Source: Dehalococcoidia bacterium
GTDB taxonomy: Bacteria > Chloroflexota > Dehalococcoidia > WHTO01
Reading direction: 5' to 3'
Assembly: GCA_040902555.1 (NCBI GenBank)
Contig: JBBDXC010000020.1
Location: forward strand, 3,528 to 67,527
Length of the DNA: 64,000 bases
A model generated the notes under the pieces. The model was not told where the DNA came from and searched no databases. It saw nothing but the letters and a program-made list of their open reading frames with translations. Numbering within the stretch: position 1 is the stretch's first letter; each line of letters begins with the position of its first letter. The position numbers were made by a program, and so were the translations under genes. Shown here piece after piece: positions 16,499 to 18,937 of the stretch.

Positions 16499-17166
16499 TC
16501 AGCTGCTGCGGTCCTCGATCTCCCAGGCGTGGTCGAGAACATGCCAGGCGATGCGCCGGGCGGCGTAGCGGGCCGGCCAGCCCTTCGCCGCCGGCGGCGA
16601 ACCATCCGAGGCCGAGCCGAGAGCCGTAGCGATGGCTGAGCGGAGGGCTTGCACAGCGTTGGCATCGTCAAGGGCTGGCTCGGGGTGGCGGATGCCGATC
16701 TTGCGGGCGTAAGCGGCCTCAGCGTTGAGCACGTGCTGGAGGATCTTGTCGCGGCCACGCCCGCCGCCGCGCGGCCCCTTGCGCAGGGAGGCGGGAGCGC
16801 CCGCCGCGACCCCATCAAGCACAGTCCAGGCAGCTTCGACCAGCGCGGACAACCGCCCGGCCCCGCTCGGCGATAGCTGCTGAAGATCGGCCGTTGCGAC
16901 ACCACCAGGCGCGCCGAAGTCAGTCGTTGACGACCCTGGGATTCTCTCGACGACCTTAAGGCCACTTAGCCGGCGGTCGAAAAGGCACACCCGCGATTTT
17001 GGCCACCTGGGCGTAGCGTTTGCCGGCGGCGGCGAGGCTCTCCAACGCTGCGTCCTCGTCCTTGCCAGGAGCGGCACCAACCTGGCCAGTCGAGGGCACA
17101 GGCAAACACCCGGCGGTTGCCTGATTCGAGGTAGACGGGGAACGCCTTGGAAACTGGCGTGGTCAT
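16499..17166 (-). pseudogene. conserved hypothetical protein split by two frameshifts (or assembly errors)
   Basis: VYLESGNRRVFACALDWPGWCRS / GKDEDAALESLA.. / KVVERIPGSSTTDFGAPG..RRIAWHVLDHAWEIEDRS joined across shifts at about 17067 and 16982. Confidence 0.7.
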
Positions 17167-17231
17167 GGTTGTTAGTAAGTTGGCGGAGCCGTTTCCGCGG
17201 GGCGACCCCGCGAGCGGGAACCCAAGAGAAT

Positions 17232-17291
17232 TGGTGGAGCTGAGGGGACTCGAACCCCTGACCCGTCGCCTGGGCGACTGCTCTCTCAGCT
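17232..17291 (-). repeat. tRNA-Ala-derived partial copy (D-loop to CCA) with the anticodon arm replaced
   Basis: AGCTGAGAGAGCA-GTCGCCCAGGCGAC-GGGTCAGGGGTTCGAGTCCCCTCAGCTCCACCA. Confidence 0.9.
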
Positions 17292-17529
17292 TTCCTTGAG
17301 AATACGGTCGAGTTCGGCTCGTCCATGCCGACTTGAGGTACCTTTCCCTGCGAACGGCTTCTTGGCGAGATTCGTACGCCTCCGTGTGTAAGAGCTCAAA
17401 CGGCCCGCCAGCCTTTGCATAAGGACCTTTACCACTGTTGTGCTCGGAGAGGCGTCGCGCGACATCGAGGGTCGACCCCGTGTAGCGGCGACCCTTCTTC
17501 ACGCTTCTTAGGACGTACACGTAGAACAA
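17286..17529 (-). CDS. GIY-YIG nuclease, copy 2 (2-nt deletion near the C-terminus)
   Basis: MFYVYVLRSVKKGRRYTGSTLDVARRLSEHNSG..EAVRRERYLKS; frameshift at about 17330 relative to copy 1. Confidence 0.85.
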
Positions 17530-17540
17530 CGGCAGAGTAG

Positions 17541-17601
17541 TGGTGGAGCTGAGGGGACTCGAAACCCCTGACCCGTCGCCTGGGCGACTGCTCTCTCAAC
17601 T
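17541..17601 (-). repeat. tRNA-Ala-derived partial copy (D-loop to CCA) with the anticodon arm replaced
   Basis: Same as 17232-17291 except one extra T in the T-loop and one substitution near the 5' end. Confidence 0.9.
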
Positions 17602-17841
17602 CTCCTTGAGAATACGGTCGAGTTCGGCTCGTCCATGCCCTGACTTGAGGTACTTTTCCCGGCGAACGGCCTCTCGACGAGATTCGTAAGCCTCGGTGTG
17701 TAACAGCTCAAACGGCCCTCCGGCCTTTGCATAAGGACCTTTACCACTGTTGTGCTCGGAAAGGCGCCGCGCGACATCGAGGGTCGAGCCCGTGTAGCGG
17801 CGACCATTCTTCATGCTTCTCAGGACGTACACGTAGAACAA
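17596..17841 (-). CDS. GIY-YIG nuclease, copy 1 (81 aa, intact)
   Basis: YVY..YTG motifs, RRLSEHN arginine, EAVRRE glutamate; TTG start 11 nt after the tRNA CCA. Confidence 0.9.
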   Translation of the reverse strand: MFYVYVLRSMKNGRRYTGSTLDVARRLSEHNSGKGPYAKAGGPFELLHTEAYESRREAVRREKYLKSGHGRAELDRILKES

Positions 17842-17852
17842 CGGCAGAGTAG

Positions 17853-17928
17853 TGGTGGAGCTGAGGGGACTCGAACCCCTGACCCCCTGCATGCCATGCA
17901 GGTGCTCTCCCAGCTGAGCTACAGCCCC
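17853..17928 (-). tRNA. tRNA-Ala (GGC)
   Basis: 76 nt GGGGCTGTAGCTCAGCTGGGAGAGCA..CCTGC-ATGGCAT-GCAGG..GTTCGAGT..CTCCACCA; G3:U70 pair. Confidence 0.97.
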
Positions 17929-17938
17929 ACGTGAATCG

Positions 17939-17984
17939 TGACCCGTCGCCTGGGCGACTGCTCTCCCAGCTGAGCTACAGCCCC
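17939..17984 (-). repeat. tRNA-Ala-derived 5' partial copy with the anticodon arm replaced
   Basis: GGGGCTGTAGCTCAGCTGGGAGAGCA-GTCGCCCAGGCGAC-GGGTCA, 10 nt upstream of the intact tRNA. Confidence 0.9.
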
Positions 17985-18001
17985 ACGCGGACGGCCGAAT
18001 G

Positions 18002-18010
18002 ATCCTAGCA
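18002..18010 (-). promoter_or_regulatory. extended -10 promoter for the tRNA/GIY-YIG array
   Basis: TG-C-TAGGAT 17 nt upstream of the first tRNA-like copy. Confidence 0.5.
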
Positions 18011-18037
18011 GGATGGGTGCGCTGAATCAGCCGCCCC

Positions 18038-18937
18038 TCAACGGCTCGCCAGCAGCTCCAAGCACCGCCTGCCCGCCCATGTCGCACGCTCGCGATCGCC
18101 CTGCCGCCAGTGGTATTGGACCTGGCCCAGCCCGACGTGCAGCGCGTAACAAAGGCTTCGCTGCTCGAAGCCGGCGAGCCCGGCGAACACCTTGCGGTAG
18201 TGCTGCCAGTGGACCGGGAAGGACGGCGGCTGCTGCCAGAAGCGCGCCGTTGCCACGTCATAGAGCGGGTCACCGTACATGCCATCACCCCAGTCGATGA
18301 CGGCCGTGATTCGCTTCCCGTCGGTGAGGACGTTGTTGGAACCAGAGTCCCCGTGGACAAGGACGCGCTCCTCAGGGCACCCCGCCGCGAGGGCCAGGTA
18401 CCGATCAAGTACGCCCCGAAAGCCTGGAAGTTCCAGGTCATTGGCTATCAGCTCCCAGTCATGATTCTCGGCCATTGCCTGCAGGTAGTCCTGCCAGGTT
18501 ACGTAGGGCGCGCTGCCATCGGGGTCGAAATCGCCGAATCCAACTCCCGGCGCCGGCACGTTCCAGATGGCGCGCATGACGTCGACCATTTCATCGAGGA
18601 GGTTCTCGACCGTGGCCGGGCTCGCGTCCTGCACCGTCTCGCCCTCGACGAACTGTGTGAGGCAAAACCAGAGGCCCTCAACGCTTTCAATCTTCAGCAC
18701 TTCGGGGACGGGTACCGCCGTGAAGGAAAAACGCTCGAAGGCGAACAGGTCCTTGTCGAACAACCGGCGCTCCGGGTGCACACGAACGACCAGCCGCCGA
18801 TTCGTCAGGTTCACCCCGTAGGCCTGGCACTCCTCGCCCTCGGCCAGCGGGAAGAGGCTGGTCTTTGCTCCGGGGAGCATGCCCTGGACAGCGGCCACTA
18901 TCTCGGCTTCGGATAGCGATGGCTTAGGCAATGTCAC
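18038..18937 (-). CDS. aminoglycoside phosphotransferase family, APH(4)/hygromycin kinase-like
   Basis: LAEGEECQAY, CPEERVLVHGDSGSNNVLTDGKRITAVIDW..GDPLYDVA. Confidence 0.85.
   Translation of the reverse strand: MTLPKPSLSEAEIVAAVQGMLPGAKTSLFPLAEGEECQAYGVNLTNRRLVVRVHPERRLFDKDLFAFERFSFTAVPVPEVLKIESVEGLWFCLTQFVEGETVQDASPATVENLLDEMVDVMRAIWNVPAPGVGFGDFDPDGSAPYVTWQDYLQAMAENHDWELIANDLELPGFRGVLDRYLALAAGCPEERVLVHGDSGSNNVLTDGKRITAVIDWGDGMYGDPLYDVATARFWQQPPSFPVHWQHYRKVFAGLAGFEQRSLCYALHVGLGQVQYHWRQGDRERATWAGRRCLELLASR

Follow-up and report, generated by a model that had tools for sequence, protein, structure and literature searches.

Hairpin-bounded GIY-YIG nuclease cassettes nested in tRNA genes: a candidate family of minimal selfish elements

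What is a small nuclease gene doing, in tandem copies, between the fragments of a tRNA gene? The question is raised by a locus on the minus strand (17984-17232) of a 64,000-nucleotide stretch of DNA from a Dehalococcoidia bacterium, hereafter the window. All coordinates are window positions, and the genome of the window, a 3.19-Mb metagenome assembly in 22 contigs, is termed G000. The original prediction, drawn from the letters and their open reading frames (ORFs), had proposed an undescribed tRNA-associated element with GIY-YIG nuclease genes. The anatomy of the locus and the tRNA linkage of its homologues bear this out, and the full-text literature searched, with subscription journals outside the search, yielded no account of bacterial tRNA genes with small GIY-YIG genes nested in them. 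The prediction missed the general plan of the element, a split tRNA gene that encloses an intact tRNA gene together with an ORF, as well as the related Ssn family of nucleases. We lean towards the view that the locus is a member of a widespread family of minimal selfish, hairpin-bounded GIY-YIG cassettes nested in tRNA genes. The tRNA-nested form is what we rate as new, while hairpin-associated single-domain GIY-YIG elements are already known.

A split tRNA-Ala gene around an intact copy

Read along the minus strand, on which all features of the locus lie, the array starts with a truncated 5' copy of tRNA-Ala (17939..17984), continues with an intact tRNA-Ala(GGC) (17853..17928, called by ARAGORN) and ends with two units (17852-17541, 312 nt; 17540-17232, 309 nt; delimited by unit alignment), each composed of an 11-nt leader, a GIY-YIG ORF and a 3' tRNA copy. 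The 5' pseudo-copy comprises tRNA positions 1-26 (17984-17959), identical to the intact tRNA, followed by the 14-nt hairpin GTCGCCCAGGCGAC (17958-17945), hereafter H, and by GGGTCA of the variable loop (17944-17939), which closes it. The 3' pseudo-copies of unit 1 (17541..17595) and unit 2 (17232..17285) both begin with GAGAGCA, a remnant of the D-arm (17595-17589 and 17285-17279), pass through H (17588-17575 and 17278-17265) and run from the variable loop to the terminal CCA (17574-17541 and 17264-17232). In all three partial copies, the anticodon arm has given way to GTCGCCCAGGCGAC. The 3.19-Mb assembly contains exact H only at these three places; a loose hairpin pattern gave 50/43 matches in G000 versus 34/39 in a control, and specificity is seen only with exact H.

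The enclosed tRNA-Ala(GGC) is identical to the pseudo-copies in positions 1-26 and 44-76 and is the sole copy of this gene in the assembly (the only 100% full-length match in G000). It is separated from the 5' pseudo-copy by the 10-nt spacer CGATTCACGT (17929..17938), which by eye resembles, in shortened form, the leader that precedes the plain tRNA-Ala of G001, a genome of the same genus (CGATAGGCCGCACGT), and is closer to the leader of that allele than to the resident leader. The leader of unit 1, CTACTCTGCCG (17842..17852), recurs identically in unit 2 (17530..17540). It is followed in unit 1 by ORF1 (17596..17841), an intact 81-aa gene with a TTG start and a TGA stop. This stop lies within TGAGAGAGCA, the counterpart of the tRNA D-loop TGGGAGAGCA, in line with the predicted origin of the TGA from the TGG of the D-loop. 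The prediction of two 81-aa genes, in contrast, applies to ORF1 only, as the copy in unit 2, ORF2 (17286..17529), is broken, and its open frame continues to 16966.

ORF1 is a predicted GIY-YIG nuclease. It matches PF01541 over residues 1-71 of 81 with 61.7 bits (cutoff 22.6, E = 8.4e-17), ORF2 reaches 57 bits, and membership in the superfamily is backed by the catalytic residues: Y5, Y16, R26, H30 and E62 are invariant in a seven-sequence alignment and conserved in 60 tRNA-type relatives. Mutants of SsnA in Y6, Y17 and E64, the counterparts of catalytic residues here, no longer cut (PMC11893778). The closest sequences with a solved structure are the UPF0213 proteins BH0048 (1zg2, E = 5.8e-12) and EF2693 (1ywl, E = 6e-08), which match residues 2-67 and are likewise stand-alone GIY-YIG domains. 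Scans with Pfam and NCBIfam identified a single domain in ORF1 and no second, DNA-binding domain. Beyond the array, the gene has no other copy in G000.

The two units have diverged in an uneven manner. Their alignment reveals 18 substitutions, all of them coding (14 synonymous, where about 15 had been predicted, and 4 non-synonymous, as predicted), and none in the 65 aligned non-coding bases (Fisher p = 0.017), which confirms the near-identity noted before. Between ORF1 and ORF2, dS is approximately 0.3 and dN/dS approximately 0.08, in a calculation that took in one out-of-register codon at a deletion in ORF2. This 2-nt deletion, between 17330 and 17329, follows codon 67, extends the frame to 187 aa and eliminates the conserved K-S/T-G-x-G-R motif; an independent contig from the public sequencing run X1 spans the region without difference. 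Taken together, the dN/dS ratio, the uniform non-coding parts and the deletion indicate long purifying selection, maintenance of uniform tRNA-derived parts and a recent frameshift. Judged from these comparisons, both ORFs appear to have been under purifying selection, as originally proposed, through most of their divergence, and one copy appears to be decaying since recently.

A pair of similar units in a metagenome assembly of 22 contigs may also be the work of the assembler, which could have joined single units from two strains. Contigs of public sequencing runs, among which X1 may be the source sample, provide a check on depth. In X1, contigs specific for unit 2 have depths of 25.5 and 30.3 and those specific for unit 1 of 19.6 and 21.9, similar to the flanks (22.9 and 22.2); this argues against a two-strain chimera, since a strain mixture would split the depth. 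The repeated tRNA-like parts are collapsed in X1 and none of its contigs bridges the two units. Nor does X1 support an additional T that unit 1 has in its T-loop (GGGGTTTCGAG): the bin 17558-17604 has a depth of 0.5, and a 95-nt contig with unit-1 letters (17289, 17292) lacks the additional base. This T, which accounts for part of the predicted length difference of 312 versus 309 nt found in the assembly, probably stems from an assembly error or represents a minor variant. Run X2, from the same study as X1, covers the flanks approximately 2.6-fold, leaves the units uncovered and contains no contig that joins across. A joint of 17921 to 17243 with 23 other letters, seen in X1 and X2, probably belongs to the tRNA of another organism. 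Runs X3-X20 contain 0.04-0.05 of the sampled words, and X17, the one among them that was compared with the window, covers tRNA-like stretches only. Given also that 18 coding sites differ between the units and that other genomes, one of them from a cultured isolate, contain tandem arrays with this period as well (about 310-316 nt), a chimera is very improbable, and the view that the tandem pair is a real element, not an assembly duplication, is supported.

Linkage to tRNA genes and hairpins across phyla

With ORF1 as a query on one genome per species, 78 loci of 44-61% identity were collected, a set biased toward proteins that have exact peptide words in common with the window ORF. They stem from Verrucomicrobiota, Planctomycetota, Patescibacteria, Ignavibacteriota, Bacteroidota, Omnitrophota, Pseudomonadota, Chloroflexota and others. 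In 53 of the 78 loci an intact tRNA lies on the same strand within 150 nt of the ORF (34 upstream, 19 downstream), and in each of these 53 the ORF and the tRNA have the same orientation. An adjacent tRNA on the opposite strand was found at none of the 78 loci, a tRNA farther away at four and no tRNA at 21. The adjacent loci use at least 12 different tRNA species, and 40 of the 53 feature a significant partial copy of the adjacent tRNA on the far side of the ORF. Among 40 genomes of the same class there are five strong matches, located at tRNA-Ile, tRNA-Val, tRNA-Asn (twice) and tRNA-Ala(GGC), while a paralogue control from these genomes, comprising 18 weaker-match loci (mostly Ssn-type or of another subtype), revealed a tRNA in none. 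The homologues are strongly linked to tRNA genes and to tRNA fragments, the point at which the original prediction had declared itself vulnerable.

These loci follow a common plan. The 5' half of the tRNA ends a few bases past a hairpin, the 3' half starts a few bases before the same hairpin, and an intact tRNA and the ORF lie between the halves in either order. The plan was found in Verrucomicrobiota, Planctomycetota, Saccharimonadota, other Patescibacteria, Pseudomonadota and Ignavibacteriota. A truncated upstream tRNA copy as in the window is present in loci L039, L040, L044, L045, L048, L054, L056 and L057. In L039 (1201-1410) and L064 (1201-1406) the hairpin-bearing 5' copies are themselves tandemly repeated before the intact tRNA, with two copies each, and every repeated copy has its own copy of the tRNA leader.

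A search for the hairpin by the tRNA flanks alone returned 44 matches, 36 of which hold a palindromic segment instead of the anticodon arm, at 33 distinct places in 23 loci including the window. The segments measure 12-19 nt, except for one longer case with the hairpin inside; the remaining eight matches are anticodon arms of neighbouring true tRNAs or due to chance. A perfect GC-rich hairpin lies within 200 nt in 62 of the 78 loci, and the density of such hairpins amounts to 8.8 per kb near the ORF compared to 2.4 farther away. The hairpin type tracks the protein lineage, not the identity of the tRNA: GTCGCC..GGCGAC is found in the window, in its tRNA-Ile family relative and at Pro, Gly, Lys and Val loci, CCCGCC..GGCGGG at tRNA-Cys in Ignavibacteriota, CCTGCC..GGCAGG at tRNA-Arg in Bacteroidota and CCCGAT..ATCGGG in Chloroflexota; a further type is CAGCC..GGCTG. 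Seventeen loci, with protein identities as low as 41%, share the exact 14-mer GTCGCCGCGGCGAC, which indicates a constraint on the sequence of the hairpin rather than on its structure alone and points to selection on that sequence itself. Where the nuclease had been predicted to act at tRNA-derived sites, the conserved partner is the palindromic hairpin of the element and not tRNA sequence.

The breakpoints are regular as well. Of 18 upstream copies, 10 have homology to the tRNA that reaches to exactly 7 nt 3' of H; of 24 downstream copies, 17 have such homology to 6-11 nt 5' of H. The bracket thus amounts to a direct repeat of about 29 nt with H at its centre.

In a tree of 92 sequences and 79 columns, obtained by a quick search, the Ssn-type paralogues are separate (SH-aLRT 94), and the tRNA-Pro loci (17 rows, 98) and tRNA-Cys loci (seven rows, 95) form clades. 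The window protein belongs to a 15-row clade of mixed phyla with members in Ile, Val, Lys, Gly, Asn and Ala tRNAs. In another clade, of 24 rows, only five rows are adjacent to a tRNA and most lack H, compared to 48 tRNA-adjacent loci among the other 54 survey rows. Loci of this sister clade (L081, L099, L058 and L083, and the 24-row clade for the most part) have neither a tRNA nor H; here, inverted repeats abut the start and the stop of the ORF (CCCTGTGAAATA...TATTTCACAGGG in L081, ACCCCCACACTAAACT...AGTTTAGTGTGGGGGT in L099), and it looks as if the gene sat in the loop of a long hairpin.

Relation to Ssn nucleases and a possible mechanism

The closest described system is the Ssn family (SsnA, cd10448) with its NTS/SRM hairpin repeats. 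Ssn proteins are single-domain GIY-YIG proteins of about 94 aa, the genes of which are flanked by hairpin repeats; SsnA binds the repeat only as single-stranded DNA (ssDNA), cuts a few nucleotides upstream and requires both the structure and the sequence of the hairpin for recognition (PMC11893778). The authors also noted the insertion sequence-like "repeat-gene-repeat" layout (Chenal et al. 2025, PMC11893778). Members were assigned by cd10448 as the top CDD match, or by a blastp match to SsnA of N. meningitidis with E < 1e-10 and 75% cover (PMC11893778). The present elements share with Ssn a small single-domain GIY-YIG protein of about 80-95 aa without a DNA-binding domain, and a gene bracketed by hairpin repeats that vary between lineages and are constrained in sequence and structure. 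ORF1, with 81 aa and one Pfam domain, falls within the size range of single-domain Ssn proteins (below about 150 aa), and it is bracketed by lineage-specific hairpins, yet these lie inside tRNA halves and form direct repeats.

Several features set the two systems apart. In the elements described here, a segment of a tRNA pseudo-copy has been exchanged for the hairpin, and tRNA halves serve as directly repeated brackets that enclose an intact tRNA, whereas the two NTS of the Ssn-type control locus L008 flank its gene on opposite strands. H is not dispersed in the genome but present in three local copies, and the C-terminal tail typical of the Ssn-type paralogues, KGW..KK..L..NP.W..L, is missing from the window protein. 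Its identity to such paralogues from genomes of the same class is 31-36%, and it belongs to a separate branch. The SRM/NTS pattern (HGTCWY...RNCYNB) was absent from both strands of 16900-18300 and from the eight tRNA-type loci tested; among all 14 loci tested, the control L008 has one on each side and the other five Ssn-type loci have none. The word "tRNA" never occurs in the main text of PMC11893778. Ssn-type genes are present in same-class genomes, namely L008 (in G009), L009 and L025. The canonical Neisseria-type NTS TGTCATTCCCGCGAAAGCGGGAATCCAG lies on either side of L008, and L009 and L025 lie among repeats built on GCTCACCATGAGCGG.

tRNA-targeting integrative elements are similar in that a partial-tRNA direct repeat flanks the insert and a functional tRNA is kept (PMC9897764). 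Yet, they measure 9-23 kb or more, carry an integrase and have a plain tRNA 3' end as the repeat, in contrast to a unit of about 310 nt and a foreign hairpin in the pseudo-copy. In that account of tRNA gene fragments, "nuclease" and "hairpin" have no occurrences (PMC9897764). In agreement with the original prediction, no integrase, transposase or other recombinase family was identified by Pfam in 14 ORFs between 9.3 and 27 kb; these comprise 13 of the 31 ORFs of at least 150 aa listed there and one shorter ORF, the other 18 being treated as overlapping shadow frames.

IS200/IS605 and REP/RAYT systems are small elements with DNA-hairpin ends that are read on one strand, and the mobile endonuclease ORFs of fungal mitochondria bring a replacement end for the displaced part of a gene. 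The former differ from the present elements by their HUH transposase, which is lacking here, and the latter concern protein-coding genes. GIY-YIG enzymes are not known to rejoin DNA.

In the reading that we favour, a cassette consists of a nuclease gene for a single domain of about 80 aa, always co-oriented with an intact tRNA and bracketed by the split halves of the same tRNA, within which an internal segment, usually the anticodon arm, has been swapped for the palindromic hairpin of the nuclease lineage. In the window, the resident promoter and leader lead into the truncated 5' half (positions 1-26, H and 44-49); the intact tRNA-Ala(GGC) is next, and the nuclease gene separates it from the 3' half (D-arm remnant, H and 44-76). 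The unit of ORF and 3' half has been duplicated once, and the second ORF is now frameshifted. By analogy with Ssn, the nuclease may recognize its cognate H, probably as ssDNA, and cut a few bases beside it. Being palindromic, H would form on either strand; if each strand were cut 7-8 nt 5' of it, a staggered break would arise, the repair of which would produce the 29-nt direct repeat. Such breaks, combined with recombination among the tRNA-derived direct repeats, might insert, copy and amplify the cassette, while the intact tRNA would preserve the viability of the host and the tRNA promoter would drive transcription.

A broader proposal is put forward tentatively, as possible rather than probable. 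Across phyla, these loci might represent an undescribed class of minimal mobile elements of about 0.3-0.5 kb, composed of a gene for a hairpin-directed 80-aa nuclease and a replacement tRNA, which split a resident tRNA gene at the anticodon arm. The nuclease would read H on both strands and cut 7-8 nt to each side of it, and the resulting repeat of about 29 nt would bracket the cassette and drive tandem amplification. The universally conserved tRNA halves could serve as homology arms for transfer across distant phyla, and each lineage would represent a new pair of hairpin and nuclease with its own single-strand cleavage specificity.

Mobility, decay and alternative explanations

Close relatives harbour the target in its empty form. 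In G001 (same genus) and G002 (same family), a plain tRNA-Ala(GGC) is preceded by the same TAGGAT as in the window and lacks both the ORF and H; the conserved target thus exists as filled and empty alleles. G002 carries an ORF of 58% identity and a nearly identical H in tRNA-Ile, upstream of 23S rRNA. This cassette (L003, 1348-3222) is positioned between tRNA-Ile(GAT) and tRNA-Ala(TGC), about 1 kb before the start of the 23S rRNA, and thus in the spacer of an rRNA operon; its 3' tRNA-Ile copy has an insertion in the T-loop. One Melioribacter genome harbours cassettes at tRNA-Cys, tRNA-Leu(CAA) and tRNA-Ser(CGA). In L029 and L030, both hairpin-bearing halves differ in the same manner from the enclosed intact tRNA, as if the resident gene had been split and the intact gene brought in by the cassette.

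Insertion exactly at the anticodon arm, empty sites in the closest relatives and a target that is highly conserved, as with other homing endonucleases, would likewise be produced by a classical free-standing homing endonuclease. Such an enzyme would cleave the plain tRNA gene as double-stranded DNA, within or close to the anticodon arm, repair of the double-strand break would copy the cassette from a filled allele, and H would merely destroy the target in the displaced tRNA halves. A precedent is T4 SegB, a GIY-YIG homing endonuclease in a tRNA gene cluster (PMC2330249), which has been reported to drive segmental amplification (PMC13096335) and resembles the present elements as a selfish gene within tRNA genes that undergoes local tandem amplification. 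Weak profile matches of ORF1 to intron and homing endonucleases, alongside weak PHROG matches (E 0.002-0.007), point in the same direction. However, the intact tRNA of the cassette has the anticodon arm of the target and would be cut too, and a mere scar is not expected to persist as an identical 14-mer at 41% protein identity. The Seg/Tev enzymes possess DNA-binding domains, cut double-stranded DNA and involve neither a partial tRNA duplication nor a hairpin, whereas the 81 aa of ORF1 include no second domain, and the match to TIGR01453 yields 17.3 bits (cutoff 56.05) over residues 4-31 only. They are also phage genes, and a search of viral contigs gave 10 pattern matches but no relative of the window protein. 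Finally, many different tRNAs are used within one protein clade. The lack of a DNA-binding domain, the intact tRNA as an additional target and the conserved sequence of H weaken the homing model, which we consider unlikely.

Tandem arrays and broken copies recur along with the cassettes. Four units are present in an isolate of Zunongwangia atlantica, two in G042 and three in Melioribacter. The array of Z. atlantica 22II14-10F7 (L047, 553-1814) consists of four 316-nt units of 95-99% identity, each composed of the 5' part of tRNA-Arg with the hairpin CCTGCCTGCCGGCAGGCAGG at position 31/32 and an ORF, and is followed by an intact tRNA-Arg(TCG) and a terminator. A 666-nt contig of Melioribacter sp. 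(L051), the name of which gives a coverage of 753, consists entirely of tRNA-Cys, an ORF, a tRNA copy with the hairpin and the first part of another ORF; it resembles an array of high copy number that has been collapsed. Broken copies are common: in-frame stops occur in L007, L040, L054 and L065, and ORF2 is another case. The frameshift of ORF2 and these in-frame stops represent decay typical of selfish genes.

Frequent pseudogenes and variable copy numbers are at odds with a host-serving or domesticated function, which might take either of two forms: an Ssn-like single-strand nuclease that curbs recombination or transformation at tRNA loci, or an RNA-level device with the hairpin-bearing tRNA-like pieces as RNase P/Z processing or stabilizing signals for the mRNA. 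The first would be in line with the modulation of Neisseria transformation by SsnA (PMC11893778), and strong purifying selection on both copies is compatible with a benefit to the host. Further points in favour are the uniform tRNA-matched orientation of the adjacent ORFs and the tRNA-like three-way folds that the 3' pseudo-copies adopt as ssDNA (z = -2.5 in unit 1 and -2.8 in unit 2). Rfam recognized the true tRNA and otherwise gave sub-threshold tRNA- and tmRNA-like matches only, such as the 3' pseudo-copy of unit 2 with the tmRNA model (23 bits, gathering score 47). On the other hand, the distribution among close relatives is patchy, with a tRNA-type gene in five of the 40 same-class genomes, one kind of cassette occupies many different tRNAs, SsnA is inactive on RNA (PMC11893778), and the sole RNA run listed contained 0.04 of the sampled words. 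A function in the service of the host therefore appears rather improbable; an RNA-level role of the tRNA-like 3' modules is nevertheless possible and compatible with selfish, hairpin-bounded cassettes.

The surroundings of the array bear on its transcription. An APH-family gene on the minus strand ends upstream at 18038. It is followed by TGcTAGGAT (18002..18010, minus strand), by reading a candidate extended -10 of the resident tRNA promoter. The motif had been predicted; its TAGGAT is shared with G001 and G002, at a comparable distance of 15-17 nt from G1 of their plain tRNA-Ala(GGC), whereas a sigma-70 consensus scan found no sites, including none at this motif. About 20 nt past the last CCA lies the strong GC hairpin CGCGGGG-TCG-CCCCGCG (17196-17212, minus strand) without a run of T; it may mark a transcript end, although the terminator scan made no call there. 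The next gene (16499-17166, minus strand) has no Pfam match and is apparently split across three reading frames: MTTPVSKAFPVYLESG... from 17166, a 49-aa piece at 16956-17105 and a long frame to 16499. It may be a frameshifted pseudogene or reflect assembly errors, and the frameshifted ORF2 enters its first frame.

Several points weigh against the selfish cassette that we favour. The nuclease is an 81-aa catalytic domain without a DNA-binding domain, so that its sequence-specific action is proposed solely by analogy with Ssn, and this analogy may not hold, because the Ssn repeat is absent and the protein does not group with the paralogues that have flanking NTS. Linkage by itself could account for the association of H with the nuclease lineage. 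Many of the rows behind the 7-8-nt regularity of the breakpoints come from the single tRNA-Pro clade and are non-independent, and the tree is built from only 79 columns and a quick search. The 24-row clade belongs to the same protein family, yet mostly lacks tRNA and H. As the sole locus in G000, the array gives no sign of recent spread within the genome, and the viral contigs provide no relative and thus no known vector. Enzymatic activity, movement and a transcript of the cassette are predictions from sequence.

The cultivation of Zunongwangia atlantica with its four-unit array makes these questions directly testable at the bench. If the proposed interpretation is correct, the tRNA genes of many phyla host a very small selfish element, for which annotation shows no more than a "GIY-YIG family protein" next to unusual pieces of tRNA. 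A class of partial tRNA genes by which tRNA predictors are misled would thereby be accounted for. Ssn-like nucleases would gain a second architecture with different hairpins, and the set of candidate sequence-specific cutters of single-stranded DNA would become larger. Finally, these cassettes would represent a new, intron-free way to occupy an essential and conserved target, namely by bringing along a spare copy.

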